Below are positions 3,512-63,700 of a stretch of 64,000 nt of DNA, piece after piece (position 1 is the stretch's first letter; each line of letters opens with the position of its first letter). The position numbers and the translations under genes were made by a program. Origin of the DNA: Blasia pusilla (lineage: Eukaryota). The DNA lies in contig CM114271.1 in the NCBI GenBank assembly GCA_050084515.1, positions 24,614,001 through 24,678,000 of the forward strand, written 5' to 3'. Below the pieces are notes generated by a model. That model made no database searches. It was not told the DNA's origin and saw only the letters and a program-made list of their open reading frames with translations.

Positions 3512-3516
<5 letters not shown>
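1597..3516 (-). CDS. GRAS transcription factor, LISCL (SCL9/SCL14-like) subfamily, intronless, ~639 aa
   Basis: LHRI (LIMQCAQAVA...QRMTHYFTEALVARL), VHIID-type IHIIDFGILYGVQWP, LRITGVD, PFFMAR, ACEGVERIERAET and terminal SSWKP (SAW). LISCL N-terminal motif FLSDMLMEED...CMF...AYQA. First ATG at 3516 (MATVGMKK). Confidence 0.95.
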
Positions 3517-3542
<26 letters not shown>

Positions 3543-3680
3543 TTCGCGCGTGTGTGTGACTGCTTTTCGATATGAATTCGCACAACTAATGTATCTCGAC
3601 TGTGCGCCACTTCCTTCTACCGTCGCAGTCCCAGAATGTCAACAAGGTCCTCCCTACGCTATGGACTCGTGTCTTCAGAG

Positions 3681-3714
<34 letters not shown>

Positions 3715-3720
3715 ATCTAT

Positions 3721-3759
3721 CGTCGCAAGGCTACGACAGGCACTGCTTAATGAGTACAG
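3721..3759 (+). mobile_element. Isolated 3' tip of LINE family A in a (CT)n tract upstream of the GRAS CDS
   Basis: GTCGCAAGGCTACGACAGGCACTGCTTAATGAGTACAG matches the 3' end of the LINE at 19329-19366. Flanked by an imperfect duplication (TCTCTCTTTCTCTATCT / TCTCTCTTTCTATATAT). Confidence 0.85.
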
Positions 3760-5520
3760 TCTCTCTTTCTATATATCTATGTATCTATGTCACTCACCCT
3801 CCGAATGGCCGTGTTAATGCCGATGGGAAATGTCGAGGCTCAGGAAGTGCAGTTTCTTACGGCCCAAGTACAGAAGAATCTCGAGAGGCGACTGTTCCGG
3901 AACCTCTCCCTCACTCACTCGTCGTGACTCGCTGCAGACACATCCGAGAACAGCGAGCACTCTGTTTCTCTTATGGCTTCAAGAGATCCGTGAACGCTCC
4001 GCCCTCCCTTGCCACGCTCAAGGGCTTGTCTTCGTGCGACTTCCATCCGCACTCGGCGAATCTGCCACCCCCTCCGACTGGAAAGTACGATATTGTGTGA
4101 CGAAAAAAGAACTCCGCGAGAATCAGCCGGTTTCCTGTTGCCGTGGATCGCTTTCTCCTATTCCGGCCCCGGAACCCCTGTCTCGCACTCTGCGCACCGG
4201 GCACAATTCGTGAAGGAAGTGGCACCGCCGTGGACCACGTTACGTTACTGAGAGTAACTATTTAATTATTTAATTAATACTATTGATTTCCTCCAGGCTC
4301 CCCCTCTCGGGTACCGCGAGATTCTTCTCCATGGGACAACATCTACTGGAGACTCGTAGACTACCCACAAGTGACCACAGTCAAACCGGACGACGTCGCG
4401 GGGTCCTTAGCTCCCGGTCGATCCAGGAACAGTCACGCGCTGGCTGTCCCGCTCCGCTCTCGGCGCAGCCAACACCTTTCCTCCACGTGTCCAAATCTGA
4501 CCTGCGCTCTCGCTCTCTGACAGTCAGGTGCCGCCAAATGTTTCTCGGATATCGGTGCGCAGACAGCTTCTCCGGTCAAATATCCTCCCCCTTCTTTCTC
4601 CTTCTCCTTCTGTAGGCTTGACGATGTTTGGAATAAAACGATGACTTTGCATTTTGTAGGACGAACTCGCTGGAGTCTTCACCCTTTTGCCATGCAAGTT
4701 CTACCATTTTTTTTTTCAAGAGCCCTACACTCGATTCGTGGAGAGGATATGAATCCAGCAATTTCGATACGCACATGTAGAGTTGAACAAGTTCGTAAAT
4801 TTTATCTCATCTAATAAAGAAACATTCTACATCACTGATATATTATTGGAAAGGATATGAAGCGATTTTTTTATATCCACCTCTGGAGTTTAAAAATATA
4901 ATTTTAAACATTTCTTTTTCCCGCTTTAGACCCACCTACATCAAGTATTCACTCGGTGCGTCGTTGACTCCAAACACCTTAGGTAACTAATAATACCACC
5001 CTACTAATCTCTCAACACTAGCTTTCCTTTCAATTTGCTCCATGACGGAAAGTCATGGAACAAATTGAAAGAGAGTTGAGTGTCTTAAAGTGCTTGGATT
5101 AAGGTCTCTGGCCCAATCGGACTTAAAATACCACGTCCTTTATGAATATATGTGGTTCATAAAAAGGCCTTTTGCATTCTAATTTAATAGCCATCCCATA
5201 TTGTGTAGTATGGAGTCTTGCGGTTGTGCAGTGACGACAGAAAATACCACGTAGGACTGGTGTATATTTGGCTGCCTGAGACGTCATGTACATGCATGTC
5301 ATACCGACGTCACCTCCGGACTCGTGTTTTGTTCCTTTCGCCTTTGCCTCCATTTTCTTTTCTTTTCTTTTATTTGTGGAGTTTTCTTTCATTAATTCTT
5401 TGATTAATCTTTGTTTCATTTTTCGCCTTTGCTTCCGTATTGTTTTGTTTTATTTTATTCGTGGAGATTTATTTTATTAATTATTTAATTAATATTTGGT
5501 CCATTTGGTACGAAATGTCA

Positions 5521-6969: not shown

Positions 6970-6971
<2 letters not shown>

Positions 6972-7055
<84 letters not shown>
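6972..7055. repeat. (TC)~42 microsatellite
   Basis: Pure dinucleotide run. Confidence 0.98.
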
Positions 7056-16900: not shown

Positions 16901-19900
16901 ATGAATCAAGAAGAATAACACAAGTTTGGAGAAGTTTTCTTAGGATCAAGTGGTTTGGAGACACTGTATCTCAAGTGCGTTATTTGATTGCAGGGGAATG
17001 CTATATATTGGCTTAAAACGATTTGGAAAGGCATTGGAGTTTTTCCAGCATGTAAGTATGTTTCTTCATCCACTCTTGCACATCTCTCTCATCAGATCAT
17101 GTTATTAATAGATTTTTTTGGTGCAGTGACTGTGTTTGGTATGCATGGAGTGCAGGAATCTGGCAATTAGGAAAGCTCTATAATGATTTAATTTTGTCTT
17201 CTATGCAAATCCAGGCCATCACTGCTCCAGCAACTGTCCTCAATGCCATTACCATTGCAGCTTATAAAAAGTTTGTTCTGGTTTGTCTTATTCACAATGG
17301 TCAGGTGGGTCTTTTTCACATTGTGGAGGAGTTTTATCCTCAAGTTTTCATGTGCTGCTCATGCCTCAAGTTAAAGCACTTGTCTTGACTCCAAGCCCAA
17401 AATACTTGTCCTGGATTTACCAGTTGTGACCAATTTGGATAGGCAAAGTGCATGTGTCTGAAGTTCATTTTGTGACTGTAATTGGATGCGATATGCAAAC
17501 CTTCAAATATGAAGTACAACTGCAAAGGCTTTGAATGTTTCTTCTTACATCACTTCTTAGTCCTTAAGATTTTAAAGGATGCATTGCAAGAGGTTGTTCC
17601 TACTTTTGTACAGCCACCCAACGACTGATGGATTATAGATAATGTCTGTTGCATATATTCATACTAAAGGCAATCACTTGTGTAAATCTCAAATGTTAGT
17701 ATAGAGTAGTCTGAGTCCTCGAGAATGTCATTATTTTGTGCAGGTTCCAGCTTTCCCAAAGTACACTCATTCAGTCGTGCAAAGAAATCTCAAGTCCTGT
17801 GCTCAGGTATTTCAAATCTGCGTTTGAAAAACTTTTTTTTTCTTAACAGGCTGTGTACTTGATTGGGCATGGTCTGCTACTGGTATTGTGCTTGAGTTAT
17901 ATTTTCTGGTATTGTATTACCTTTTAATGACAACTTGTAGATTATTTGCACTCATGTGACATTCAACTGATACAGCTTTTGGTTGTGTAGATGAGGGGTA
18001 GATTGACCTGACATAAGTTATACCGAATTGGAATTGTTTGTCATGGATTAGACGTGGAGTCCTCACAACATTCTGAAGTTTGCCAGGAGTCAGCCTCTAG
18101 AGCTATGGAGTGGCAATTATGGCGAAGTGTAGGGTCTTTAGAGGATTTGAAGGCATCTCATACCGTTCATTGACTCTCAAATGCTTTGAAATTTTCTGGG
18201 TAGCTGAAAATCCTCTGCTTGTACAGGATTATTTTGATCTGGCAAACTTGTATAACAGCCGGAATATTATGGATGTCAAGCGCTGCGTCAATGCTCATGA
18301 AGATGTTTTAAAAAATGTGAGTATTTATAAATAACGAGTTTTTGCTCCCTTAGCATTGCAGATTAACATAAGATGGGATCATTTGCACTGTTGTATTCCT
18401 AGCAAGTAGCCCACTCATGGAACTCCCTTGTGGTCTGAGGTAATAAATCTCGTATGCTGATGTCTAACAGGATACGAATTTGGGACTTGCAAACCAAGTG
18501 ATAGCTTCCTTGTACAAGCGAAATATCCAGCGGCTGACGCAGACGTACCTGACTCTTTCTCTCCAAGATATTGCTGATACAGTGCAATTGGATGGACCAA
18601 AGGAAGCAGAGCTGCATATTCTTCGAATGGTGCATTTTTACCCTGTTCTGCTGTGGTTTAATTGATTCAATCATCATCATTGTTGAGACACTCTTGTTTT
18701 TGTAAGTATACACTAATAATATCACTATATTTCTCTAGCACGTGAACCAGGCTAGTAAATATTGTCGTATACACCTGAAGTAACAAGAATAAGAGGAAGT
18801 ATGACTTCTGATTCATCTGTCAGCTGAGTGAATTCTTCATATCTTTCCATGTGTGAGGGAGCTCACAGGATTTTGCATCTATAACACCATGGCTGGTTAG
18901 GAGTAAGGGTTTTTTTTGTTGAAATCCGAATTCTACTTCTCTGAGATATCACTTTTAAAACTTTAAAAGCATGGTAAGATAGCAGATCCCGACAGGATCT
19001 TCCACTAAACCATGTACATGAGGGTAATCACGTACAAAGCTGAAGGAGCAAATCTGAAATGGATTGCATGTAGAACTAGCCTGCAACTTCTATTGAGAAC
19101 TGGGTGCTTGGCACAGCAACACCTTCTTATAATACACAAGACCTGAAGAGGTGGTTGAAACGAAGATGCAGGAGTTTGTGGTAGATTGGTTCTTCGACCA
19201 TTCTTCACACCAATGTACATTCCTTCTTAGTTGATCAAGGCACCAGCAGGGGTTCAGGTATGTAGGAGCTAATCTCAAGACACACTACCTTAGGGGAGGA
19301 GTAGAAGTGAATCAAATTAGGAAAGAGACTGTACTCATTAAGTAGTGCCTGTGGTAGCCTTGCGACCATGGGCCCCACGCCCTGGTTGGATGGTGCTGGA
19401 GACTGGGATGGGTGTAGAGAGAAGAACAAGTGAAGAAGGTACCATATGAGAGGAGGGAGACACTCTCATATAGTGTGAGTGCTGACCAAACAACGTGTTG
19501 GTGCGGAGCTTCCAAGTGTCAACCAAGAAACTCTTCACCACACCATCTACTTTACCTGATTGGGATCCCCAATAGACATTACTTACCAGTGCAGCAGCTT
19601 TGGGCAATGAATCGAGGCTACGGAATGTGTCGAACAATTCTGGTGTTACCAGCTTAGCAATATCAGCATATGCTCTTGCTCTGTGTGTTGTGAATTTTGC
19701 GCAGGAGACCAAGTAATGACTAGAGGTTTCATCTCCATCGTCACACAAGGCGCAAGAGTTTAGTTGTGTTCCCATCCTGCTTTTCTTATGGTTCAAGGGG
19801 ATTGCCCCCGTCCTGAACTTGAACTTGAGCGGGTTCCCTAGCAAGGGGTTCCCCGCAAATAGTTCTTCAGTTCTGCCTTCTCAGGATATACTGTCAAAAG

Positions 19901-22900
19901 AGAGAGGTCAGACATTTTCATGGCTTCCTCCGTGCTGTTCTGCTGTGAGCGTTTGCCCACTGCTTTGGTTTTGGTATCCACGAATGCTTTCTCATCTTGC
20001 TCCCACAGTCCAGGCCCTGCTGGGAGCTTGGATGCTTGCTCAATCTCTTGAACCTTTTTCGTCCAAGATTTGGCCTGCTTTACGGGTCTTCTTTGGGTCC
20101 AAGTTTTCCCCATCACCTCTTTAGGATAGCGATGGGAGTCCATTGTCTCCAGCTGCCTCCTCCATTTCAACTTGGCGATGTCACGTCTATCCTCCAAGGG
20201 TTCCACACCAAGTTCTGATCTCACACCAACTCGGGCTGTTCGTGAGGAAGTTGACATCATACCCTGAAACGCCTTCAGCTGCACAGCTTCAAGCCTGTCC
20301 CTTTGTTTGGTGTTGGCATCCCACACTGCTGCCCCATATTCCAGCAAGGGATGAATGGTATGCAAAATGACAGAGCGCTTTACTTCTGATGTGATGTCCT
20401 GGCAGTGTAGGAATCTGGACAGACTGTTCACCTTCTTGTGGCCTTTCTCAGTAGTCTTCTTAATTTGTGCATCCCACATGCAATCTTCCGAGAATTCTAT
20501 GCCCAGATAGGTGTATGTGGCCACACGGGGGATCTCTTGTTCGCTCCAGTACCACTGTTGGTCTTGGTCCTCCTCCTTGCCATTGAAAATCATCACACCA
20601 CACTTCAGTACATTTGCCTCCATGCCCCACATGTCACACCAGATTTTAGTCAGGGAGATCATCTCTTGGAGTTTCTGTCCTGTTTCCTCTAGGCCACCGA
20701 AGTCATCAGCAAACATGAGGGAAGCAACAGAGCTGTTGCCCACCCGTATGCCTAGTCCACTTTCCTCCATTTCTTCCAAGAGGGAATTCACGAAAATGTT
20801 GAAGAGGGTGGGGGAGAGCGGGCATCCTTGAGCCACTCCTTGCTTGATGTCGAATGTCCCACTCTTTTGGCCATTCACCAGAACTCATTGTGTTCTGGTA
20901 CATCTTCTCCACCACCCTCCACATTTTCCCTCTGAGCTCCGCCTTCCACAAGCTATAAGATAGCCCGTCACGCCATACAGTGTCGTATGCCTTCTTGAGG
21001 TCCAAGAAGAAGCAATAGGTGGGTTTCCCCTCTTTTTTCCTACCCTGGATAATCTGACTGAAGGGGAAGATGTGATCCACGCATCCTCAGGCTTGCCGGA
21101 AGCCAGCCTGGCCTTCCTTGATGACAGAATTCTCCTCCAGGTACACAGAGATCCTATTGTTGAGTATACGGCAGAGGAGCTTCCTGACTACACTCAGCAA
21201 TGTAATACCCCTGTAGTTTCCAGGGTCTTCTCGCTCACCCTTCTTGAAGAGGTTCACGATGACTTCCACCCGCCGTCTTTGTGGGATGACTTCTGCCCGC
21301 TAGACCAGGTTGAAGAGACTCACTAGAGGAACAAGCCATAGCAGAGTGGCCATACTTCAATAGCTCATTCACAAGCTCATCACCACCGCCTGCTTTGTGG
21401 TCCACAAGTTCTTTGATCGCTGTTCCCACCTCATCCAGGGAGAACCAATGGTTATATGGGTTGCCCAGCTCAACCTCTCATCATATACCTTCTCTCGGTG
21501 TATCTTAACAAAATCCTCCACCACCCTCTTGAAGTTCTGCTCTTCAAGGGATGTCTGAGCGGGCTTCCTACCTAACTCTTTGTAATGGTCTTCCAACACA
21601 TGTCGGATCTGTTGAGCCGTGGTCACCATTCCACCGACTTTTCTCTTCAAGGCCTTTACGTCGTTTTTGTCCCTGGCCTTGCCCAATGTTTGCACTTCCA
21701 TACAGAACTTTTTCTGATTCTCAGTGAAAATTCTTATTGATGGATGAGTATGTCGCTTGGTTCAATTTCTTCTTGTGCATGTGCACGAGAAGACGGGTTT
21801 CCTTAGGAAGGGCCACATATTCTGCCCACAAGGATGCATTGTCCTTGGCTTTGGCACTTGTTACATACGCTTCCCTTCATTTGGCAATGGCTGCCTTGAG
21901 TTCCAAGGACCACCATTTGACGGCCCTGCCCCATATTATCAATTTCCTGCTGACGGCAATCTCGGCGGCATCTATCACTCCATGTTCCCACCATGCCAGC
22001 ACCATGTCCACAGTTGTTCTTGTGAACCCAAAGGTCTTGACGGTCTTGGCATTTGAAAGTGTCAAATGCCAAGAGATTTTCTTCCAGCTTGCCAATGTAC
22101 ACCTTCTTGTTACCCTCATCTTGGAAGTCCTCTATCCTCCATTTCTTGATCACTCTCTTCACTGGTTTGGTCGAGCATTTTAGCCTTTGCTGCAACTCTG
22201 TCCAAACCAATGAATTATCCGATCTTCTAATGTCTGTCGCATCCACTGTGATCTTCCCACTGTGTGTGTAGAGTTCCTCATCCACAGCCATGTAGTCCAC
22301 AATGGAGCTTTCATTCTCCTTGAAGTTGACCCTAGTCCAAGCCGGGGAACATGGTTTTTTCAGATTTAAATGTTGGGGTTTTGTATCTATTTGCGATATC
22401 TTCACTTGCGCCTTATGGCTATCATTCAGTGCCATCAGTTGAAATTCCCTCAACATCGTGATCAGCTGCGTGCCATTGCCATTCACTCTCACATCTCCAA
22501 ACATCCCGATCTCCGCTTGGGGATCAGTGCCTTGTCCCACCCAGCTGTTGAAGTCTCCCAGCAAGACTATGTTCCCCTTTGTTTGGAACCCAAGGCAATC
22601 AGTTTTCACACTATCAAACGCTGCCTCTGTTACAGCAGCAGATTCACTGTTGGTCGGCATGTAAATACACCCAATATACATATCCCGCGAGTTGCGCTCT
22701 GCTCGGACTTTGACCCGTATGCTGTGTTCATACTCGAGCCCTGTGCTGATGGTCTCACACCTGTCCACCATGAAGTCTCTGATGAAGAACCCGACACCCT
22801 TAATACCTCTGTTGTTGTCCACCTGGGTGCTGGACATCTCTCCAAACCATGCATAGTGTGGTACGTGGGGTATCTCCATTAACTTGGTTTCCCAAGTTTC

Positions 22901-25900
22901 CTGATCACCGCATATATGTATTTGATTTTTCAGCAAAACTTCAGCAACCTCCAGCTACTTCATTGGATGGGTCAGTCCACAGAAGTTCCAGGTACCCAAA
23001 CGGAGACCTGTCACTAAGTGGGTTGGGGGTCGGCGGGCACCCTTTTGGCGTAGGTGTGGCTGCTTGCAACATGGAACCTCTTCATGTGCAGGCTCTTCAT
23101 CGCTGGTTCCTTGGAGAGCACTAAAGATATAAGGTGTGTAGATCACCAGCGGTTTTGTGGTGATGGGCCTTTCCTTCAAGCTGGAACCACCCTCAACTAC
23201 CATAGCCCTCCAGTTGTATTCACGTCTCAGTTCTTGAGACACCTGATTTTTGTGGCAAGCCTCCTCTGCCCTTGATAGACGCCTTGAAGATACATTGACA
23301 GCCATTCATCATCCGAGTAACCCCAGCTGTAGCCAGGAATTCAAAGCCCAAAGCTGTGCACATGATCTTAAATGAGACGAAGTCTACGGTGGGACGTTCA
23401 CAAAAAATGATCATGTGGAACTGTGGTCTCCTCCTATAGACCAGTTTGAACTCTCTCCCCAGATCCGGACTGCGGGGGGCCTTTGATGGTCTCACATAAA
23501 CATGCCGGTATTCCCCACTCAGCTTGGGGATGCTGAACTTTGGTATGCGCCTTTGATAGGTGAACTGGTACTCCTCACAAGCTTGGGAGGATAGAGATAT
23601 GTTGGGCTCAAGGCCGCTGATTATATGTAGAGGTTTGGCAAACAACTGATTTAGGATCTGGGGAGAATGTTTAAGCTCCCAGCCCAAGAGTCCAGACAGG
23701 GACTCGCTGTCCTATTTGTGCGGAGGGGCGGCCTCCAAGCGGCAGGGTACCCAAAGAGAGCCCGCTTGTTACCCCCAGAGATCATCACTACCTGCCAAGG
23801 TGAACAGCCCTGGCATTAAGGTACAGAGGAGGGCCGGTGAATCCTGCTTCAAAAGAAGGAGAGGTCTCCATTTCTCCAACTAAGTCCACTGGACACCTTA
23901 CTTGTGGCACAACTGCCACAAGTCACATGGATTACAGGACACAAAAATCCACACCTACCAACCAGGGGAACGACATCGCAAGCTCACAACGGGTTCCAAC
24001 TACAGCAATGGGCAACTCGATAGAGAGTATTGCTATATTACTTGCACGCGGTTCACTCATTATATACCCAGGAGCAGTGCTTTAGGGCATGTCGTCCCAA
24101 CATACCAGGCCTGTCAGGACTTGTAGTTTTGGGGTTTAAACTCAACCAGGCCAGGGGGAGAGAGAGAGAATGAATGAATGAATAGATTTATTGTCCACGG
24201 GACCCCACAGGGCCATGGGGCTTAGTTTTGAGACTTAACAACAATTTTGGAGAGAGGTCAAGCACCAGCAAGGGCCTAAGAGGTCCCCTGAGCCAGGTGA
24301 GTGTCCCTAGTCTTCACATAACTATGCAACAATTTAGCAATCTGAATCTGATTCTGCCTAGCCATGAATGCGGGGACTGTGGAAGCCTGGTGATCAAAGA
24401 GATCCGGGAAGTCAAGCCTAATGTGACTGTGAAAGGTGCAGCCGAAGAGGTAATGATGTTCATCATCAATAAGCCCCAAGTTGCAAAATCTACATAATCT
24501 GTCCTCCCTTTTCTTCATTGAGAATTTTCCTTTCTCAATCTCAAGGTCAATAGAGCCACATCTGAATCTCGCTAATGTATGACGTAACTTGTAGCGCCTC
24601 ATTCTTTCACCATTTTTGTGAGATGTATGCCCCCTGCTTTCCCAGAGACGCTGGTGTCGGCCTCAGTTGATGGCAATGTAATTGCTGTGCAATTGTTCAG
24701 CAAGGTCCTGGTGGGTGGCCATCGTCGATGGAGATTCCCCATTTCATGACCCACTCCTTGCAGTCATAGTACCAGTTTTTAGCCCCAAGGGTGGCACTAC
24801 TTTTGGAAACCACATAGGCCCTGGCGGATAGACGATTGGGATCGTCCTCGCAGATATCCTTGAGGTGTTGGAGAAATGTGATCAGATTTTTAACAGCACG
24901 GATCTCCATTGGTACCTCCCCAAACTCAGCCAGTAGAATGTGGTGGGGATTGGTTTTCCTAATGCCCAGACTCTGACGCATGAAGAGTCTCTGGGGGACC
25001 TCAAGGCCCTGGGGCCAAGCCTTGGGGCTGGGGCCCCATACCTCAGATGCATAGAGTGGAGCTTTGAAGAGATGGAGTTTCTGCGGAATATGCCAGAGTT
25101 CCATTCTTCAGCAATTGGATTGCAGCAGGTGTAGACCCCTCAAGCCTGCATTGATCTTGTTGCGACTCCCATTGGTTCTCCATTGGTTGTTGGGTTTGAG
25201 TTGCACCCCCAGGTATATGTACTCACCCTCAATCTCAATAGTCTCCCTTCTCAGTCCCTGGTGAAGGTGAAAGTGTGTGACCGTTGCGCCGTAGGGAGCT
25301 GTGATCCAAAGATGATTATCTTCGTTTTCAGCAAGTTGACTTCCATGCCCGATTTGTTGCAGAAGCTTGATAGTGATTCAGGTAAAGTTGGAGCCCATGT
25401 GCTGTTCTAGACATCAAAACTATATCATCTGCATACAACAGCAGGGGGATGAGGCAGTGTGCTAACCTCTTCAAGTTCGTCAATGTAGAGCCCAAACATT
25501 GTAGGTGAGAGGGGGCATCCTTGTTTGACTCCGGTGTTGGAGGATAAAGTTTCAGATCTGCCCCTCTTAATGGCAATCCCTGCTAACACCTGAGCATATA
25601 AGACCTTGATTGCTGTAAGTTGTTGTGGTGGGACACCCAACTCTTCAAGTCGTTTCCAAAGAAGTGCCCTTGGAACTGTGTCAAATGCCTTCTTGAAGTC
25701 TACAAAACAGCAGAACAATTTTCCCAGCTTGTGACCATTTCTTGACCTGGAAGTTTCTTCAATCAGTACTCGGAGTGTGAGAAGGTGAGAGGGGGCATCC
25801 TTGTTTGACTCCGGTGTTGGAGGATAAAGTTTCAGATCTGCCCCTCTTAGTGGCAATCTGTGCTAACACCTGAGCATATAAGACCTTGATTGCTGTAAGT

Positions 25901-28900
25901 TGTTGTGGTGGGACACCCAACTCTTCAAGTCGTTTCCAAAGAAGTGCCCTTGGAACTGTGTCAAATGCCTTCTTGAAGTCTACAAAACAGCAGAACAATT
26001 TTCCCAGCTTGTGACCATTTCTTGACTTGGAAGTTTCTTCAATCAGTACTGGGAGTGTGAGAAGGTGATCCAGGGTACTATGTGAGTGTCGAAAACCTGC
26101 TTGTCCTCTGGCTCACACCTTTTTTTCTTCAGCCCAGTCGCTGATTTTCCTTTCCAGCAGTAGCCCGTACAACTTGGCCATGAGGGAGCTCACCATGATC
26201 GTTCTGTAGTTGGATGGTATCATTGGGTGTCCAGCCTTGAAGAGTGGGTGGATCGTATTCATTTGCCATTTTGGTGGGAAGCCCTGTTGAACTGCAGTAT
26301 TGAACATTCTGGTGAGGGTTGGGCCAATTGCCTCACTTGCGAATTTGAACATCTGACCCCAGGTCATCCTCTGGTTTGTTATGTAGCCTTCTGAGGCCCG
26401 ATGTGAAATCTTCAATGGTGAAGAGGTCCGGCAGATCCCGGATCGCATTCGGTTGGTGGGAGCAGCAGTGTTGGAGTGGTAAAGTTGGGTACCATATGTG
26501 GTCCAGATCTGTAGATCTTGGAGTGGAATGTTGTTCTGTGTATTCCTGAGTAATTCTCCAGAATTTGGCCGATTGGTATTTTATTTGTTCTGTGAACTCT
26601 GTGATCCTCATGGCAATGTATTTGTGCTTCTTCCTACGTACCAATCGTTTGTAAGTTTTCTGCAACAATCGAGTGTATGGAGAGTGTGGATCCTCCCTCA
26701 GCCGGTGATTCAGCTCCCTGCGGGCCTCTTTGCAGTCCTTGTCAAACCAGGGTTGGGAGAAGAACATAGAAGTTGATCTAATGTGTTTGCCTCCAAACAG
26801 TTGGAAAGGTAAGACTTTTCTGCAACACTGATGTAGGATGTCGCTGAACTCAGTGGTGTTCACTGTAGGTGAGCACTGTGTAAGAGCCTTGTTGACGAGT
26901 GTGATCAGGTCATCTTTCTTTTCCTGAAGGAAAGTGTATCGACATTTGGTCGGCAGAGTTAATTTTTCTGCAGCCTCTGGGTGGTTTCGGAGACCATGTC
27001 AAAGTAGAGTGGTTCATGATCAGATTCTAGAACGGGTGTGATACGGACATTGGCAACCAGATGTGGTAGTTGATGTACTTCCCCAATCAGGTAGTCGACC
27101 ACTGAGGTTTCTCTGCTGGAGTCAGAGGGTCCAATGGAAGTGCGACCTCCTGACTGTGGCCACATAGCCATGACATTGGCGAGTACCAAACAATGTGTCG
27201 AGCAAAGTTAGAGAAGTTTCTCTCCATTGGCTGTTTTTTCCTTGTCCACTGAAGTGCGCTGCAGGTGTGGGAAGAATACTTCTCCGAGAGACCCGTCTGC
27301 CGACTGAGCATCAATCCCTTCCATGTTGGTGTTGTTTGACAAGAGAGAGAGAGAGAATGAATGAATAGATTTATTGTCCACGGGGACCCCACAGGACCAT
27401 GGGACTTAGTTTTGACACTTAACAACAAATTTGGAGAGAGAGCAAGCACCAGCGAGGGCCTAAGGGGTCCTCAGAGCCAGGTGAGTGTCCCTGGTCTTCA
27501 CACAACTATGCAAGAATTTAGCAATCTGAGTCTGATTCTGCCTAGTCATGAACGGGAGGACCCTGGGAGCTCGGTGAACAAAGAGATCCGGGAAGTCAAG
27601 CCTAATGTGATCGTGAAAGGTGCAGTCGAAGAGGTAGTGATGTTCATCATCAACAAGGCTGGAGTTGCAAAATCTACATAATCTGTCCTCTCTTTTCTTC
27701 TGTGAGAATTTTCCTTTCTCAATCTCCAGGTCAGTAGAGCCACATCTGAATCTCGCTAATGTATGACTTAACTTAGTGGGAATGGGGGCAGAGATGTAGG
27801 AGGCTTGCTGCATGGATCTGCAGTTGTTCATGAGGGTGTGGTAGCGCCTCATTCTTTCACCATTTTTGTGAGAGGAATTCCCCCTGCTTTCCCAGAGGCG
27901 CTGGTGTCGGCCCCAGTTGATGGCAATGTAATTGCTGTGTAATTGTTCAGCAAGGTCCTGGTGGGTGGCCGTAGGCAGGTCACCGATGGACATAACTAGA
28001 ACTAAGAACAAGAGATAAGAAATAACTTCTAATCTACCTGAAGTGAGAGACTTGTAACCATGGTAAACTTCCAACCATGGTTTGTAGAACTAACCACAGT
28101 TAAAACTAAAAACGATGGAATTTTTTTTTTGAATAGCAGACAATTGTATATGAAATCCTAACATGCTTATCACAGTCTCATATCATCTTGTACATAACAG
28201 CAAATTCTTAGGCAAGTTGTCTTCTGTGTTGCAGATACAAGATGGAGAGATATTTGCGACAATAAATCAAAAGGATGGAATGGTGAGCTTTCAAGAAGAT
28301 CCAGAGCAGTATAATACTCGGAAAATGGCCAATCGTCTTGATTCTGAAATTCAGCAGTAAGTCACCATTTCTAGCTCTTATGCTTACACTATATCATCTG
28401 CCTGTCTGTGACTTTACCTTGTTGTGAACATGGTACCCAGAAAGTCTTTTTCTAGCCCTGCTTTTGTGTTCTTACCATAGGTTGGGTTGTCTGCAACTCC
28501 ATTTTCTCCCTGATACTTTTCTGTAGTTTACTACAGTGCAAGACAATTCAATCATTCTAAAGCAGACTCATGGTTTAGAGATTGGAATTGACATATGAAC
28601 CTGAAATGAGAATGATGAAATCGTGCTAGTTCGATGGGTGACGGCTAAGGTGGTAGAGACTTATGTTGTCATGCTGAATATTTGGTTTTACAGCATCATC
28701 TGTCTTGCCAAGAAGCTTTCGTCTGTTGATGAACAAGTCTTATGTGATCAAAACTATTTGAGCAAGGTGTGATTTAATCTCCTCTTTTAGGATCCTATTC
28801 CAGCTTCATATTTCTGCATTACTTCATTCTTTAAGTTGAATCTCAGGTGATGGGTTCTCCTTGATTCCAGCAAAGAACTTGGATGAAATCCATTTTGGTT

Positions 28901-29101
28901 TTAGTCCTGACATTGAAATTACTTGGATTCTTGATCCCTTCTGATACCTCTTCCATATAATCTTTTGTTGTGTGAAGCGTGTCTGATATTCTTTCCTCAC
29001 ATTTGACGAGTTTGTTACTCTTGCAGATTGGCAAAGATCGGCCTCGATACGACCCTGATGACTTTGAGCTTGTTCCTCAAAAAATGTACACCAGTTTGTG
29101 A
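13971..29101 (+). CDS. CSN3: COP9 signalosome subunit 3, 11 exons, 431 aa
   Basis: Exons 13971-14155, 14867-14982, 16265-16529, 16994-17051, 17215-17304, 17744-17806, 18227-18316, 18471-18629, 28235-28356, 28694-28766 and 29027-29101. All introns GT-AG, phases consistent, 1296 nt total. Motifs [37 protein letters not shown] and PCI domain [20 protein letters not shown]...[19 protein letters not shown]. Confidence 0.95.
15430..16100 (-). mobile_element. Possible very old LINE RT relic in CSN3 intron 2
   Basis: Weak collinear remnants on the - strand: EQxG-like (~16090), DLSKA (~16035), SHLDD (~15725). Confidence 0.25.
19329..24157 (-). mobile_element. LINE family A (APE endonuclease + RT + C-terminal Cys/His motif; RTEX/RTE-like), near full length, disrupted
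   Basis: [80 protein letters not shown]-terminus FRTG..CALC..ET..HYLVSC. 3' end ...GAGTACAG|TCTCTTTC. Several frameshifts. Lies in CSN3 intron 8, antisense to CSN3. Confidence 0.92.
24158..27342 (-). mobile_element. LINE family B copy 1 (RTEX-like), 5'-truncated within the endonuclease
   Basis: [90 protein letters not shown]. 3' end AATAAATCT(ATTC)4(TC)5. Confidence 0.92.
27343..27990 (-). mobile_element. LINE family B copy 2, 5'-truncated (~650 bp)
   Basis: Same C-terminal motif ([30 protein letters not shown]) and 3' UTR as copy 1. Tail (ATTC)3(TC)6. Homology to copy 1 ends at ~27990. Confidence 0.92.
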
Positions 29102-44400: not shown

Positions 44401-47400
44401 AAAGTGGATCATACCATATCCAAAGCAGAAGACTACTATGAAGTCTGATAAAAGTACTTTTCAAAGTAGCGTAGTTCTACTTAGATAGATATCAAGATTT
44501 ATCCTAAATCTTGATATCCTGACAAACTATTGAGGAATCTTAATTTTAGGACTTTCTAGAATAGATAACTGAAATAGAAGAGATCAAGGGGGACCAGCTT
44601 AAGAATTCCCAGCACTGCCTTCTTTTCTCACTATACTGTTTTGTGCTTTCCCGAGGCCAAGGTTTGTTTTGACCACTTGCAGGGAACTAGAGCATGCCAA
44701 TGACTAAGGCCTTCACAATATTCTTGGGATTCAGGGAAACTGCCACCTCCATAACTTGGACAAGAACTAAGGACACAGAGAAGTAATGGCAGTTGATTGT
44801 TTCTGGGCATCCTATTCCTTTGAAACCATGGCTCGTTAATGAGCTGGACACATTTTATTTTATTGCCACTCCAACCCTTTTGATGGAACATTTCTTCGAC
44901 TAATAAGGACCTTATCAGGGTGGTAACCGTGCGAATGACATAGTCCCAGCTTTGTTGTGCTAGTAGTCTTACAACCGGAATACTTCCACCCTCGTTCCTG
45001 ATTGGACACTGCAGGAGAGGAGTAAGAAAATAAGTATGTGCAAGAAGGATGGTTCCTTCAGAATGTGAATACTTACCATAGGTGTTCTTCAGGAATTTCC
45101 AGGTGTTGACAAACACAGAGTTTACAACACAATCTAACTTGAGTTAGTCCCCAAAATCCATCAATACCAGTGCAGCAAGTTTTGGCAGTGAACCTGGAGT
45201 TCTGAGTGTGATGGGACACCTCTGGTCATATCAACTTGGCAGTCTCAGAGAGGGCTGTTACTGTAAATTTCTGACAGGTAAACCAGTGGCGCTTCAAGGT
45301 ATCAAACCTGACATCACATCCTGTGCAGGATTTTCTTTGGTTCAAGGGAATAGGCACTATCCGAACTTCAGCCCAGTTCCTTGACAATGAATCCGTCACA
45401 AGCAGTTTTGAGTTAGAGATGCATGTAAAGCATATTCTCATTATGTGCATGTAATAGCCATGCAACAATAGATCCAACAGTCTGGATGGTGCGACACTGG
45501 GACAAGAGAAACTACCCCAATAGAAGGTATCTCATATTGGGTGAGTGCTAACCATATAGAGTGTAGATGAGCCTCCAGGTATCAACCAAGAAACTCCTTA
45601 GACACTATCAGCGTCACCTGATTGGGATCCCTGAGAGACATTACTAGCCAGTGCAGCAGTTCTGAGCGATGTATTTAAACTACTGAACTTGCCAGGTAGT
45701 AAGTGGGGATTCTCCCCCACCATCACACAAGATGCCTGAAAAGATAAAGAGAGAGAGCACTGGCTTCTAAATTTCTCATGCGTAAGAGCCACCGTGGTAT
45801 TGACAGCAGGCTTCAGATGTGGAGTGTAACTGACAGCAGTTGTGTTATCCACTTGTGGGACTCCAGTACTGGTGTAAGTTAGTCAATCTCTTGGCCTGGT
45901 GATGGCTGTGCTGGGTGTTCCGAGGCCCAGGATTGTGGCAAAACCTAATTGGGCATTGGCAATTATGATCAAGAGAAAGGGATGTCGCTGCACGTTGATC
46001 TATTTGCAATCTACTGTGCTCCTGGGCAAGATATTCCGGCACCCAGAGTCTATACTGCTTAGGAGCTTTGTTCTTAGAGATGTATGATGGATAAGGGCCA
46101 GAGATGTGGCTATCATAGAGAGACGAGGTCTTGAGTCTGAGAACTATAGAGGTATAACCAAAACAACCTTTTCCCGAGAAGTAGGAGGTGAAAAAAGAGA
46201 AAGAAAGACTGTACTCATTAAGTAGTGCCTGTCGTAGCCTTGCGACCATAGACCCCAAAAAGAGAAAGAAAGAGAACCTTTGAGAGGCAAATAGTTTGGG
46301 CTTTGGAGGTATTTTTGAAAAGGCATTCAGAATCCTGCACAAGACGAATAATCAGTTAGCACACGAAAACACGGGACATGTTCCCGGTCATCAAGGAGAA
46401 TTTATAACTGCCATGGACTTCTCCACACCAAACACACATGCAGATCTCAAGGCGGCATTCACATTGGCCTCTGAATTCTAGTACTGTCGCCCATAACAGA
46501 TCTCATTCCCCTGCAGAAAACGTAACGTCCAAAATAGCTCTCAACTAGGGAATTTCATTGATGCAGCAACTTCTCCATATTATCTAGAACTAAAACTGAA
46601 AAGTCCATTGGAGTACAAAGGCCAAACCGCTGAACAAAATATTCTTGCACAAGGGTTACTGTCTCAAAATTCTGAAGTGATCACGTACGTGTAGAGGGGA
46701 ATGTCATCATGACAGGTGTAATGGAAGATCATAAGCAGGGCATGGATGAATTGCGCAAACCAGAGGACCCAAACACAAGACTTTAGAACTAGCCACGGTA
46801 GCAAGAGGCCTGTGCAGATGTGAGAGGAGACCTAGAAAAAAGCTTTGCCACATCTTCACACTCTCGGGAGTTATAAAACCAAATGCCATTCACTTCTTGG
46901 GCAGCATTCCGGTACAACAGATAAGGAACTTGGACTTCGTATTCAAAATCACCCAGAAGATCCTCCACGAGATTCTCTGCAAATAGCAAGAGACGTTCTT
47001 AGTCCTATGTCAACCCATCCGCCACTTTTCACATGTGCCAGTTTGAAATCGTATTTTTCAGTTATGAGGAGAAGCGCAAAAAGATACAAAATCTGAATCA
47101 CAGAAAATTACAAATCGGTTAGCAAATTTTTGCCAAGTCAAGCATACCACATTATGACAATCTACCCGTCTCCCCATCCTATCTTGTACACTCCTTGGGA
47201 CATGTTTTAGATTATTCAGTACCTCACCCCAGCGAGCTACCCACCTAGACATAGTTAGAACCTAAATGCTGACTCTCATAGTTGCTGGCTCTGGGAGTTG
47301 CTTCAAGTGTCTGTCTCAGGGTAAGAGCATGTTCTCGTGAATGAATACACACCAGATCCAATTTCCCTGAGTGTTATGGCCTTCCATATGTTCGATCATG

Positions 47401-58379: not shown

Positions 58380-60762
58380 GCATCTCGCATAGCAGTTGTC
58401 TTGCAGTTGGTTCCACTGCCCTTCCTCAAAAACACTGCATCTAAGTTCTTTTCGTGCCACAGGGATAGAAGTGTTAGGAGGTTGCCTTGTAATGGGTGGT
58501 TTGACTTTGAATGCAAGCAAGCAAGGGCACGATCAGTTGATAAATCTTTTGATATCCAAAGTCGGATTATTATGACGAGCCTTTACAAATACTTGGTGAA
58601 ATCTAAGAAACGAGCTTTCTTGCGGTGGAAGCAAGAGTCCTTGACCACGGAGCTGCATGAGGATCCCAAATCATTTTGGAGACGGTTAGTAGTACGGTCT
58701 TCAAAACCTACTCTTGATCCCAAGTCTTTGATATCTTTTGCCGAAAAGCTCTATTTCTTCCCCGACGCTACATCTATGCCACGTTGTGAAGGAATATTTG
58801 GCTTATTCTCTGAAGCATAGGTGATGACTCAACTAAGAAGATTAGCGAATGGTAAATGTGAGGATTTGGATGGTCTTTCTATTGAACTTTTCAAGTGGGG
58901 AGGAGATTGTATTGGACCGATCCTCACCAAAGTATTGGGTGATGCTATTAGCTATGGTTTTCCTTCAACTTGGTCGCTACGGGAGATTGTTCCTATTCAC
59001 AAATCACGAAGGAAGGACTTGGTAACAAACTATCGCACTATCATGGTGGGTAGTGTTTTTGCCAAGTTGTTTGGGAAATTGGTGGAGTCAAAATTGAGCA
59101 CATGGACATAGTCTTTCCAAAAGAGAGCACGGGTGCAAGCTGGTTTTCGTCCAACATACAACACCATCAACCATATCTTGGCCTTGCGTGTTTTATGGGA
59201 GAAATCTAAGGGCAATGGAAAAGCTTTATTTTGCGGTTTCATCAATTTCAAGAAAGATTTTGATACTGTACCTCGTAAGCTCTTATGGGAAAGGCTGCAA
59301 GCCATTAGAGTACCACCAAATCTCCTAGCAGCCATGGCCACGTTATACCATTCCGTTCAGGCCAAGATCAAAGGTTCACAAACTCAAGAGATCTTGAGTA
59401 CAATCGGAGTCATTCAAGGTTGCCCTCTCTCCCCTCTTCTCTTTGGAGTTTTCATAGATGATATCTAAAAGTGGTTGGAGGAATGTGATAGTGAAGGTGT
59501 CAAGCTTGGGGACTTTGTCATCAAAGCTCTATTGTATGCAGATGATATCATATTACTAGCACGTGATGGCATTAGTTTACAAAAACACCTCGACACTTTG
59601 GCAAGGTTTTGTATCCAGAATCATATGGAGGTTAATATGGACAAATCTAAAGTCATTATAGTAGGTACTAGATCCAAGTTCTCATTCTTTTACAAAGGTC
59701 TAGAAATAGAACAAGTGAAGAGTTACAAATATTTAGGCATCAATTTCTCTAATGACTATAGTTGGGCACTTTGCGTGCAGAAGAGAGCAGAAGCTGGTTA
59801 CAAAGCTCTATATTCATTTTTAAACCGGTGTAGAAGAGCTCATCTTGTATCTTGGAATCTTATGAAATTCTTATTTAGGAGCTTAGTGTTGCCAGTGGTC
59901 TTATATGGGACCCAAGTTTGGGGCCCTAGTTGTAAGAAGACAGGTTGGGAGCGCGTGGAGAGGGTGCAAAAGATCTTTCTATAAGAAGAATTGGGTGTAA
60001 GAAACCAAACTCCGTATGCTATTCTTCTTGCGGAAACAGGTTGTCTTCCTCTAGAGGCTGAAGCTCTTTACTTGACCATCACTTACATCGCAAGGGTGAG
60101 ATCTCTTGATGTTTCTCGCCTCCCTCGTCAAGCTTTGCGAGCCACACGTTCCATAGGGTGGATGGCGGATGTGGTGACTTGGTCTTCGAAGTGGAATGTG
60201 GCGGAACGCGATTGGGACTTGAAATCGATGGCCCTCTGCGAGCAATTTCTCAACATTATTTGAAGGAGCCAAGGCACCAAAATGGATTAACAACTGCATG
60301 TTAATCCTGTGCTTGTATATTGTGAACAAGGATACCTACTTGCGGGGATCTCCACGTTCTTACGTCATATTATCGCACAACATATAACTGGGTCTCATAG
60401 GCTAGGAATTGAGGAAGGACGATGGTTTAATATTGATAGAAGTGAACGAATTTGTAGGTTATGTGACGGAGAAAATATTGAGGATGAAGAGCATATGTTT
60501 GTTACATGTCCAAGGTATGAAGAGATTAGACTAGCTTATAAAATAGATGTGGAGAATTTTTATTCTTTACTATAGCTAGTGCCTTATGATTTAGGTTGTT
60601 ATATTAGGGACGTCATTATTCATTGCTCAAGTGCTCTAGGCAGTAGCTAAGAGAAGGTCTTTAAGATCTTTTTGTGGGTCAGTGAATGAATGACTTGTAA
60701 TGTGTTTTCCAGCCTTTTGACCCTTTGGGTCCCACGGGCTTGATCTATTTACCATTTACCAT
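58380..60762 (+). mobile_element. LINE family C (RTEX-like, related to family B), 5'-truncated, with in-frame stops
   Basis: WFDFECK, NYRTIMVGS, QAGFR, FINFKKDFDTVPR, GVIQGCPLSP, LLYADD, YKYLGI, GSHRLGIEEGRW..RICRLC..EDEEHMFVTC. 3' hairpin GACCC-TTT-GGGTC and (ATTTACC)2 tail. Confidence 0.9.
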
Positions 60763-63700
60763 ATTCTCGCGACAAGCTAGTCTAGGTTTCAACTTGAGTG
60801 GGTCACACCAAGATCTTTCATACTTAGACCTACGATCATGACTCACTTCTTAGGTGCTTGTAGACTTAGCTATTTGCAACGCTTTTGTATTCAAAAAGTG
60901 GTTGTTATTTGCAAAATGCTAGCAAAGAAATCACAAAATATTTATTTGCAAAAGTTGTACTTGCAAAGCATATGCTCAAGCAAAAAATAGACTTGCAAAA
61001 TATCCAAAAATGACTTTTCAAACCCCTTTTACGTTTTTGTATACATTCTTACCTGTTCATTTAAGGTTACTCTATTCTTTGTACATGATTATAGATCTTG
61101 TACAATTAGTAGTTTCCTTAAACACTTCATTACAACCATGAACAGTTGTTGCACTAACAAATTGGACTCTCTTTTCATGATACATGACATGCCTCCTCGT
61201 TGCCACATCACATTTTTCAAATAAGGTTCACCATTGATATGGCAATTGCAAACATCCTAATTGCATTTTCTTTGCCATTTCTATGTTTCAATTCAATTCT
61301 ATGTTTCAATTTTGCCCATTTCTTTTGTGTTGAATTCCTTGCGTTTTGCTCTTTAGCCTCGTCAAATTTTCAACACCCTTCAAATTTGATTCATCCTTTG
61401 ACTCCAATTCTAAAAAAGAGGGGAAAAGAAAACAAAACATTTCTTTTGATCTTCATGATGTAAAACCAATGACAAGTTGGCGGTTGTATACGTTGTGTGA
61501 TGATGTGTATATACACAATATCCACATAATCAAGAAAAGTAGGGTATTTTATATTGCCACGTCGATTCATCCAATAATTTAGAGTTTGCCATAAAAGAAC
61601 ATTCTTCTTTCCAAGGTATCCTTGTAGCAAATCTTGTCTCTTTGACATAAGCATTTGCACTTGGCTACTTTCCTTTTGTCTTTGCATTTTGAAGTGAAGA
61701 TTAGATATAATCAATCGATTTAACATTCATGTTTTTACGTCCTTTGTTTATGGGACACATGTCTCTCTATGGATTAAATATCTTTCAAACTTCTTAAAAC
61801 TCTTGGTCCCATTTAGCTTCAACTTTGGAATTTCAACTTTCCAACTTGGAGGGAGGACTCCCACTAGTAGGCCATAGGTCTTTGCATAGTATAAATGAGG
61901 ACATTTGGAATGACTTGCAAAATTTGTTCCTTATTCTATACCAAACACAAGTTTACCATAGCCGACCTCACAAGTGACTGTATGGGCGCAAATGATTTCA
62001 TTTTCGAAAGTGTGTTTTCTTAGACAAAAAAATCAGGGGTCACATAACCTCCACCTTACATCCTCACGTATATAGAATCAAAATATCCATCATATTTTTG
62101 AACGTATCCCCAAAATTCTTATTTAAAAAAAGTTTCGAGTATTTTCATGACTTTTTATTTTCCACTCTAACAATATAATTCTTACTCTATGTGACTATTT
62201 TGGAAGCCTCCACATGTTCCATATTGTCTATTCAACTTTAACACTTATGGACGCATGAAAATCTTTCCATTCGCCAATTACTCAATGAAGCTTTTTCCTT
62301 CCACATAGGGATGAGAGAGGTGGAAATCTCACCTAAAGACGGTAAAGGCAAGTAACAATTGTGTGGCCCCATGGAGGAAGGGACAAGCCATTGATAGGGT
62401 GGGGACCAAGAGGACGATAAGAAGTAGGGAACCCCAACTAGCTGAAGTACTTACGTAATGTAAGATCCTATGGTGTGGGGTCAAGGATATGGATTTTCAA
62501 GAATCAACTCCATGGGAAAGTTGGAAGGTACATGTGGTTCTTGTCTATTTGGGAGGGCATGGCAAGTCCATGTCTATACATTCTCGAGTGTCTTATGTAG
62601 CCACCAAATATAGGACGTAGTATGGGAAGGGTGGGGCTTCGGTTAACACCTGATTAAGTTTGTGATTAGGCCGTCCATAAGCATCTCTTGGTGTTGGGAG
62701 GCACTATAGAATCGAGAAACTCCAGTTTCCATGCGAAGGGAGTGAATGTTAAAGAAAATGCCGTGTCATGAGGTTTAATATTTAATAGTGTGTTAAAATG
62801 GGTGTACATGGGAACAAGTCTACATGAGAAGATCACAGTCAGTCATATAATAATGGTGCTGTTAATTCACTCCAACGGCACAAATAAATACGTCTGCAAA
62901 TTATTATATGGGAAAGCAATCTCGAGGGGGTAAGACGAGCAACCATTGAAAAAAGAAAAGAAAAAGGAAAATGTAAACTCTACTAACCCATAGCCCATGG
63001 TAACAATCCGTCTAGCTTTGATCGTGTTAAAATGAAGAATTGATTGCCATTAGTTCGTTCTCTCCCAGGTAAAAATCGGTCAACTTCTTAAAATTATGTT
63101 GACACCGGTTCTAATCAAACTATCCAACATAACCCTTGATTGAACATAACAGCTCATTAGAGAGGGTGGGAAGAAGTTCCATAGCAACGTCCAAGGAGGA
63201 TAGGGCCCATGTAGAACCAGTCGGTTTAAAAAATGATTATTATAATTTTACAAAAACGACAAGAAACATTTGTTGGAAAGAAGAATAAACATCCGCTCGG
63301 ATTGGGTAAATACCGTTTAAAAATATAAATTTATTTATTTTTGTCATGGTTTCGCCATGAAAACTCCTAGGGGATAAGAAAAGAGAGTGTGTCGTTAGCT
63401 ACTAGTTAACTCTCCTTGCCACATGACAATAATTACGATCATTGTCAACAACTTAATAGAAGAAATTAACTATCCTACTTAACCATTCAGTTATTAGTCG
63501 TCTACATGCGATAGCTGGGCGAGAAGTTTCAATAAAATGGATTAGAGAAGTGGGCGTACTACAACTAATTATTTCTTCCCGCCATAATCCTTCCATGAGC
63601 TTCTACCAATCATTTTGATCCATCTCAAAAGTCTATTAAAAGACATAAGTGATCTTACTTGACACTTAAATTATAGCCATGGAAAGATCAAGAAGACACG

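Follow-up and report, generated by a model that had tools for sequence, protein, structure and literature searches.

Known LINEs with repeat targets and tandem insertions

Microsatellite-specific LINEs have so far been found mainly in fish and insects. Kibi elements of zebrafish and pufferfish are APE-type LINEs that insert specifically into (TC)n microsatellites (Kojima & Fujiwara 2004, via an excerpt of PMC3812793). Tandem arrangements of non-LTR elements are known to result from double insertion at one site, as described for R1 and for jockey and other non-LTR dimers of Drosophila (PMC5932611, in excerpt). Among plant elements, the L1 lineage L1-CS has a target preference inside the CUS-TR24 satellite of Cuscuta europaea (excerpt of PMC8091179), and most plant L1s carry a C-terminal CCHC zinc motif (zf-RVT) together with a poly(A) tail (excerpt of PMC3472496). 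In RTE-related LINEs and SINEs with microsatellite-like 3' tails, the first base of the target-site duplication (TSD) correlates with the tail repeat (PMC6007223, in excerpt).

Here, we describe three LINE copies from two families, A and B, that stand head to tail in intron 8 of CSN3 within a 64,000-nucleotide stretch of DNA, the window, which also contains a relative of family B, LINE C. As far as the excerpted sources describe these systems, family A resembles Kibi in being a probable APE-type element, in having TC repeats on both sides, and in an orientation fixed to the repeat strand. It differs in that the host is a liverwort-like plant; in that its targets include impure CT-rich runs (TCTTTCTTTCTCTTTTT) rather than perfect (TC)n alone; and in that the array combines two unrelated families. 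The train shares with the double-insertion tandems its tail-to-internal junctions, its differing 5' truncations, and a target copy of TSD length in the junction, but the target is a microsatellite rather than a unique site, and three elements from two families are involved. Like L1-CS, which has TSDs of 13-16 bp, it appears to represent plant LINEs piling up in one kind of tandem repeat through an endonuclease preference. L1-CS cleaves a satellite monomer at TTCTA and TTTCAA, whereas the tract here is a CT dinucleotide repeat and the elements lack poly(A). Finally, family B and LINE C end in short tandem repeats and a TCTC motif opens the flank, as in the RTE-related retroposons, which suggests that pairing between tail and primer may help site choice in B and C. 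Unlike those retroposons, the relatives of B are not RTE elements but LINEs of streptophytes whose C-terminal zinc motif is L1-like.

Layout of the train in CSN3 intron 8

CSN3 has 11 coding exons on the plus strand, mapped by tblastn with the CSN3 homologue P0001, which shares 89% identity with the query ORF, and Pfam COP9_hel_rpt matches are present. The intron between exons 8 and 9 measures 9.6 kb, in contrast to 154-1264 bp for the remaining nine CSN3 introns. The components of the train and its host intron are as follows.

18633..28234, plus strand: CSN3 intron 8, host of the train (tblastn exon map)
27355..27995, minus strand: B2, a 5'-truncated family B copy with the C-terminal part of ORF2 (CX2C..HX4C motif), a 3' UTR and an (ATTC)3 tail at 27366-27355
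27341..27354, minus strand: linker 1, (TC)6TT, from the B2 tail to the truncated 5' end of B1 (sequence reading)
24168..27340, minus strand: B1, a family B copy 5'-truncated within the endonuclease region, RT present, (ATTC)4 tail at 24183-24168
24158..24167, minus strand: linker 2, (TC)5, from the B1 tail to the 5' end of A (sequence reading)
19329..24157, minus strand: A, a near full-length LINE family A copy with an ORF1-like region, APE-like endonuclease, RT and C-terminal zinc motif
19321..19328, minus strand: CT-rich 3' flank of A, TCTCTTTC, a candidate TSD

On the minus strand, the order is B2 (27995-27355), B1 (27340-24168) and A (24157-19329), all co-oriented non-LTR retrotransposons. 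The original prediction of a head-to-tail train that fills most of an unusually large intron is borne out: the elements are joined solely by (TC)6TT and (TC)5, they occupy 8.7 kb of the intron, and the size contrast with the other CSN3 introns holds. At least positions 18917-19316 of the intron remainder are also repeat sequence. No sign of an effect on the CSN3 gene was seen.

Copy A starts at about 24157, ends without poly(A) in TTAATGAGTACAG at 19329, and contains many frameshifts and stops. Its TCTCTTTC flank agrees by eye at eight of nine positions with the 9 nt preceding the presumed 5' end, and the pair forms a possible TSD. B2 ends in AATAAATCT(ATTC)3, and its similarity to B1 starts at about 27995-27990. 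In the minus-strand sequence, no TSD around the whole train was recognised by eye. TCT plus five further pyrimidines, a pattern found at 0.0021 per window position, directly follows all five exact A and B 3' ends, which is more than chance would give. Read mapping covered the train outside 24149-24194 and 27338-27375, the B-tail microsatellites and junctions, where 30 loose-end entries were dropped. The related-species run X6 has zero depth in the unique flanks and yielded neither an empty orthologous site nor an intermediate.

Domains and relatives

Matches to RVT_1 lie above the Pfam cut-off in A (E = 5.6e-13, 49.5 bits), in B1 (E = 9.6e-14, 52 bits) and in LINE C. The endonuclease of A gives a weak Exo_endo_phos_2 match (E = 1.1e-3, 19.3 bits against a cut-off of 27.4), while PF03372 is above the cut-off in full-length relatives of A; B1 retains just the end of its endonuclease domain. 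The zf-RVT match of A is likewise weak (E = 4.8e-4, below the Pfam cut-off), and the B ORFs contain a recognisable CX2C..HX4C motif. Six of the ten ORFs scanned match no Pfam family, and both A and B lack a poly(A) tail.

The RT domains of A and B share 26% identity and their database relatives differ, in agreement with the earlier assignment to two distinct families. Protein searches place relatives of B in Taxus, Adiantum and Klebsormidium. Among the 31 protein matches of A, the only named relatives come from fish (LINE ORF2 proteins, 28-29% identity), and no named plant appears. In the PDB, A matches R2 at 2.8e-12 and human L1 ORF2p at 1.3e-11; neither these matches nor the protein atlas separates L1 from other clades for A.

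Family A and its CT-rich target

The exact 13-nt terminus of A is found at three sites in the window, where the bases directly after it are TCTCTTTC, TCTCTCTT or TCTTTCTT. The two sites outside the train are listed below.

3681..3779, plus strand: 41-nt A tail, 5'-truncated (3719-3759), between a preceding CT tract (3681-3714) and a following CT-rich flank
46192..46273, minus strand: 48-nt A tail (46256-46209) with a perfect 17-nt CT-rich TSD (46273-46257 and 46208-46192)

A fourth match to the 13-mer, at 1026-1038 with two mismatches, was rejected as a chance match, having no similarity to A and no CT flank.

Judged by its sequence, 3681..3779 records a separate insertion of A, made where a (CT)n tract ends, and the 41-nt copy has a similar imperfect repeat on either side. 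A TSD assigned within a dinucleotide repeat is by nature a weak call. The 17-nt direct repeat of the 48-nt copy is perfect and begins right after ...ACAG, indicating that the CT run there is duplicated target and not an added tail. CT-rich sequence lies on both sides of all three exact copies. The orientation is fixed as well: at each of the three, TC lies on the sense strand, and the read consensus has the same polarity.

Raw reads (X14) provide 369 ends extending past the A 3' end at 19324, with a plus-strand consensus of (AG)n, that is, (TC)n on the element strand; 49 contig ends in X1 likewise continue into (TC)n on the element strand. This consensus runs for about 20 nt and exceeds the 17-nt TSD, so tail addition or later microsatellite growth is possible for A. 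For family A, then, the three window ends, the 17-nt TSD and the (TC)n at the read ends support the proposal of a CT target with target-site duplication.

Read depth over A is about 620 near the 3' end and declines to about 80 towards the 5' end, compared with about 0.27 in six unique flank bins, pointing to a family with on the order of a thousand members, mostly 5'-truncated. Truncation is evident both in this gradient and in the 41- and 48-nt copies and, together with the lack of LTRs and the 17-nt TSD, identifies A as a LINE. A further 98 read ends diverge at 19369, where 18 nt of A-like sequence are preceded by CT-rich sequence. In at least two X1 contigs among the matches listed, the A 3' end is followed by 15 or 25 other letters and then by a 5'-truncated A, indicating that head-to-tail joins recur elsewhere. 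An older A-like pair at 45745-44950 is also arranged head to tail, with a spacer that has no clear CT richness.

B1 and B2 as separate family B copies

Family B is represented in the window by B1 and B2 only, both inside the train. B2 and the 3' part of B1 are 89-95% identical (90.3% over 433 nt and 95.4% over 130 nt; the window repeat listing gives repeats of 300 nt and 130 nt), with 60 differences over 587 aligned sites. B1 contains an internal 280-bp tandem duplication (25503-26068, 98%) and lacks 32 bp at 25464, as well as 66 bp in comparison with B2. At the joint 27983->24726, reads of the family run on into the body of B.

At all three positions checked, the base at which nearly all family reads differ is private to a single window copy (27658 and 27768 in B2; 24427 in B1), and the 5' truncation points of the two copies differ. 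These unshared mutations and distinct truncations fit the original prediction of separate insertions. CpG-polarised differences comprise five losses in B1 and one in B2, and family reads favour the B2 3' region over that of B1 about 7-fold (181 vs 25); both hint weakly at a younger age for B2. No TSD was recognised for B2, whose upstream flank ends in GTTCTAGTTATG without (TC)n. The linkers, at 14 and 10 nt, are within the range of the 17-nt TSD.

LINE C and tail types

58391..60764, plus strand: LINE C, related to B (RT amino-acid identity 43-49%) and truncated at its 5' end, with the tail (ATTTACC)2.3

Family B has (ATTC)n tails, and that of LINE C is (ATTTACC)n. In B1 and B2 the sequence following the tail opens with TCTC, which in LINE C comes one base later; the frequency of TCTC in the window is 0.0067. 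TCTCGC is found just upstream of the presumed 5' end of LINE C and again 1 nt past the last tail base, a pair that is a weak TSD candidate. RNA folding of six 3' end sequences from A, B and C gave no structure whose stability exceeded that of the shuffled controls (z between -1.57 and +0.48), and a conserved 3' stem-loop is thus not supported for these elements.

Origin of the train

The train probably arose through separate target-primed reverse-transcription events of APE-type LINEs at a CT tract. cDNA synthesis would start at a nick before TCTC/TCTY runs on the (TC)n strand, and one CT tract in CSN3 intron 8 would have been struck three times. Every insertion would split the tract and duplicate 10-17 nt, leaving on either side a CT run that could serve again as a target. 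Since such a target is strand-asymmetric (TC vs GA), all insertions in one tract would point one way, producing co-oriented, head-to-tail elements separated by CT remnants of about TSD length. We infer that B shares the CT target of A, which it could reach through an endonuclease preference for /TCTC or through base-pairing between a (GA)n primer and the ...UUC with which its (AUUC)n tail ends. The order originally proposed, A before B1 before B2, may hold, but the same structure also results if newcomers enter the CT tract downstream of a resident element. The earlier idea that each insertion regenerates a landing pad stands insofar as the target site is duplicated within the repeat, but it was overstated, because this is the known double-insertion mechanism (as given in the excerpt of PMC5932611). 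The elements most likely settle in TC-repeat DNA, as fish LINEs are already known to do, and the pile-up is real yet a known kind of event.

The tail itself could instead have acted as the landing pad. B transcripts would then end in (AUUC)n(UC)n, each copy would bring its own (TC)n, and B would have no CT preference. CT-specific A would have entered the (TC)n behind B1, B1 would have reached the end of B2 as a good priming site, and the array would have grown at its 3' side, opposite to the order originally proposed. Alu elements that insert into older poly(A) tails offer a parallel. Such growth fits the (TC)5-6 found directly after (ATTC)n in both B copies, the (TC)6 at the 3' side of B2 with no CT run at its 5' side, and the position of A's upstream TSD candidate, the 8/9 match, which adjoins the B1 tail directly. 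The repeat tail of LINE C, however, is followed by no (TC)n but by TCTCGC only, which is present upstream of the presumed 5' end as well; B1 has (TC)6 and (TC)5 at its two sides in the manner of a TSD; and the CpG losses and read preference that weakly suggest a younger B2 misfit the entry of B1 into a B2 tail. We consider this account unlikely.

A single chimeric event, in which the RT copied A RNA to its 5' end, switched to a B RNA at its 3' end and then to a second B RNA, would explain why no host spacer is present and why each junction joins a tail to a 5' end or an internal point. LINE reverse transcriptases are capable of template jumping. Yet three templates from two lineages at 26% RT identity would be needed, the whole block lacks a flanking TSD, B1 appears more decayed than B2, and the linkers match a TSD in length and A's proven target in sequence, all of which makes such an event highly improbable. 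Explanations by chance adjacency, by an assembly error or by a local duplication of a single B copy are scarcely credible: the junctions do lie in low-complexity DNA prone to assembler misjoins and no read was seen to span them, but exact abutment of tail and element occurs twice in one intron, against the low background of TCT-pyrimidine runs, and the unshared private mutations at the three positions rule out a late local duplication.

Implications

No (TC)n-specific LINE of plants was found in the literature outside Repbase reports and subscription journals. The data allow a tentative joint reading: A could be the first land-plant lineage of (TC)n-microsatellite-specific LINEs to be described, with copies numbering on the order of a thousand and its nearest named relatives in fish, and B could have converged on the same target. 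This convergence may have come about via the (ATTC)n tail or the endonuclease. If this is true, co-oriented mixed-family arrays would grow at CT tracts, A and B together would help shape the abundant CT microsatellites of the genome, and a high-copy (TC)n-seeking family would extend microsatellite-specific behaviour to land plants. It would also be a natural case of one repeat target used by two unrelated LINE lineages, which bears on the question of what determines where LINEs insert, the endonuclease or RNA-primer pairing. At the level of the locus, the meaning is small: a CSN3 intron has been inflated about tenfold by antisense, decayed elements.

Searches of other sequence collections

A 20-mer from the B tail matched three loci in metagenome contigs, all from one unrelated AT-rich gene and thus chance matches, and a 23-mer had no match in viral_contigs. 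A 22-mer from the A tail had none in either genome_contigs or viral_contigs. Protein-based locus searches returned four loci in Veillonella MAGs, all chance matches of 25 residues, and none in a second search. Three air-metagenome runs contain small shares of the sequence words.

A LINE train within an intron of CSN3

A plus-strand open reading frame in the window has as its best database match the CSN3 homologue of a Marchantia species, at 89% identity, which places the window in a liverwort-like plant. Mapping by tblastn with the Marchantia CSN3 homologue places 11 coding exons; Pfam finds COP9_hel_rpt in this CSN3 context, and exon ends are visible as well. Exons 8 and 9 enclose an intron of 9.6 kb, at 18633-28234. 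The remaining nine introns measure 154-1264 bp by the same tblastn mapping, short as had been claimed. On the minus strand of 27995-19321, three co-oriented non-LTR retrotransposon remnants from two LINE families, A and B, are arranged as follows:

27995-27355, minus: B2, a family B fragment comprising the terminal ~640 nt, ending ...AATAAATCT(ATTC)3
27354-27341, minus: linker 1, (TC)6TT
27340-24168, minus: B1, a family B copy truncated within the endonuclease region, with the 3' UTR of B2 and (ATTC)4 at its end
24167-24158, minus: linker 2, (TC)5
about 24157-19329, minus: A, a 4.8-kb element of the other family, ending ...TTAATGAGTACAG, then TCTCTTTC

The three-LINE train in intron 8 is thereby confirmed as originally described, with two additions. 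One is the tandem duplication in B1 given below; the other is that the leftover intron, over at least 18917-19316, is itself moderately repeated sequence. Lying immediately past the A 3' end, this stretch has a read depth of about 29, compared with about 0.27 for unique flanks, and shows neither a second copy within the 64-kb window nor any coding signal.

B2 and the 3' part of B1 share 89-95% identity, and a global alignment of the two copies differs at 60 of 587 aligned sites. RVT_1 scores above the Pfam cut-off in both A and B1, and A additionally gives weak, sub-threshold matches to Exo_endo_phos_2 and zf-RVT; six of the ten ORFs scanned have no Pfam family. The reverse transcriptase (RT) regions of A and B are 26% identical and, judged by sequence, the two families are not closely related. 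The RT region of B1 contains a 280-bp tandem duplication (25503-26068, 98% identical), and, relative to family reads, B1 has a 32-bp deletion (at 25464) and A an insertion of 62 nt (22349-22410).

CT tracts at the ends of family A

Reads and contigs from four runs were compared with positions 17500-29500 of the window. In the raw-read run X14, depth averages about 0.27 in six unique flank bins, falls over A from about 620 near the 3' end to about 80 at the 5' end, and reaches about 150-180 over B. Both families are high-copy: the A 3' end is present on the order of a thousand times and B several hundred times, a rough estimate that takes in reads of at least 85% identity. The depth gradient over A is the 5' truncation typical of LINEs. 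Past the A 3' end, at 19324, 369 X14 read ends have the consensus (TC)n on the element strand, as do 49 contig ends from the contig run X1. A class of 98 read ends that split off at 19369 shows the upstream flank: 18 nt of A-like sequence lead into CT-rich sequence. At least two X1 contigs run from an A 3' end through 15 and 25 other letters into a 5'-truncated A, indicating that head-to-tail A-A junctions also exist elsewhere.

The exact 13-nt A terminus occurs at three sites in the window, the intron copy included; a fourth match, with two mismatches, is attributed to chance. The two copies outside the intron are:

3719-3759: 41-nt A copy where a (CT)n tract ends; a similar CT-rich motif occurs to either side of the copy
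46256-46209: 48-nt A copy lying between the two units of a perfect CT-rich direct repeat of 17 nt, which begins directly after ...ACAG

The CT run at the 48-nt copy is target sequence that was duplicated rather than a tail that was added. In the window, each of the three A ends is directly followed by TCT and five pyrimidines, a pattern that occurs there at 0.0021 per position. CT tracts are thus well supported as a landing site for family A.

About 500 bp downstream of the 48-nt copy, the minus strand carries a head-to-tail pair of older, diverged A-like C-terminal fragments (45745-44950). The first, about 45745-45431, is preceded by a CT tract (45757-45746), and a weakly pyrimidine-rich spacer of 30-55 nt separates it from the second, about 45400-44950.

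Family B and a related LINE

B1 and B2, both within the train, are the only family B copies in the window. In each, (TC)5-6 directly follows the (ATTC)n tail. B1 lies between (TC)6 on its upstream side and (TC)5 on its downstream side, the arrangement expected of a target-site duplication (TSD); no CT run is found upstream of B2. The window holds one further B-related LINE:

58391-60764, plus: LINE C, 5'-truncated, RT at 43-49% amino-acid identity to B, tail (ATTTACC)2.3, not (ATTC)n

Set against the (ATTC)n of B, the tail of C indicates that this lineage ends in a short repeat and that (TC)n is not a feature its tails share. In B1 and B2 the post-tail flank starts with TCTC; in C, TCTC comes one base later. 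TCTCGC, 1 nt past the last tail base of C, recurs immediately before the presumed 5' end of C, making it a weak TSD candidate. The flanking sequences favour, without proving, a /TCTC nick preference in the B lineage. The original idea that CT tracts are a landing site shared by A and B is well supported for A, on its TSD, its ends in the window and the reads, and plausible for B, judged from B1 and B2 in the train. Searches of public DNA collections with the B tail gave three chance matches in one collection and none in the other, and searches with the A tail and protein-based locus searches gave nothing useful.

Assembly of the train

Three positions were compared at which the window copy departs from nearly all family reads; at each, one B copy alone carries the deviant base (27658 and 27768 in B2, 24427 in B1), with the other copy carrying the family base. 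B1 and B2 are independent insertions, and the private bases, at all three positions compared, rule out a late local duplication of one B copy. CpG-polarised differences comprise five losses in B1 and one in B2, and family reads favour the 3' region of B2 over that of B1 by about 7:1 (depth 181 versus 25), which weakly, and not decisively, suggests that B1 is the older.

The train would be most simply explained if a single strand-asymmetric CT tract had been hit repeatedly by target-primed reverse transcription. Every insertion would duplicate 10-17 nt of the tract, leaving CT runs on both sides that are open to new insertion, and the 14-nt and 10-nt linkers would correspond to TSD length. Because the TC strand differs from the GA strand, all insertions would share one orientation. 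The order A, B1, B2, with newcomers landing upstream, and the reverse order, with newcomers landing in the CT run behind the resident, yield an identical final structure. The self-extending array originally proposed, each insertion regenerating a landing pad, is what an already known mechanism would be expected to produce. A template-jump chimera would instead produce the block in a single event; it is less likely, since it requires three templates out of two lineages, no TSD surrounds the whole block, and the parts seem unequally decayed.

Relatives and known parallels

At E <= 1e-20 the A RT fragment has matches in 31 longer proteins, most at 29-48% identity and none from a named plant. For the A ORF2 fragment (19838-20884), species-named matches are to catfish only, at 28-29%. 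Unlike those of A, the relatives of B are streptophyte LINEs: its RT fragment matches 586 proteins and, among the 120 listed, named matches include Taxus, Adiantum and Klebsormidium at about 50-60%. Judged from these matches, family A may have an origin unusual for a plant.

Several published systems offer parallels. Kibi elements are TC-microsatellite-specific APE-type LINEs in fish (PMC3812793), and tandem non-LTR elements in Drosophila arise by double insertion, their junction containing a TSD and their truncations being distinct (PMC5932611). A plant L1 lineage in Cuscuta has a target preference inside a satellite (PMC8091179), and in RTE-related elements the tail repeat correlates with the TSD (PMC6007223). 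Both A and B lack the poly(A) end that most plant L1s have (PMC3472496). No report of a (TC)n-specific LINE in plants was found in the literature covered, outside which lie Repbase reports and many subscription journals. The interest of the train lies mainly in its host lineage and in the mixing of two unrelated LINE families.

Other features of the window

Several further features were recorded:

500-1019: 190-bp tandem repeat, 2.7 copies
1600-3585, minus: intact 662-aa GRAS-domain ORF
3516-3718: two CT microsatellites, situated like the 41-nt A tail copy a short way upstream of the GRAS ORF
6971-7055: long (TC)42 microsatellite
32630-36235, minus: Copia-type LTR retrotransposon remnants (gag, pre-integrase, RVT_2)

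Counting both strands, the 64 kb contain 11 tracts of (TC)5 or longer.
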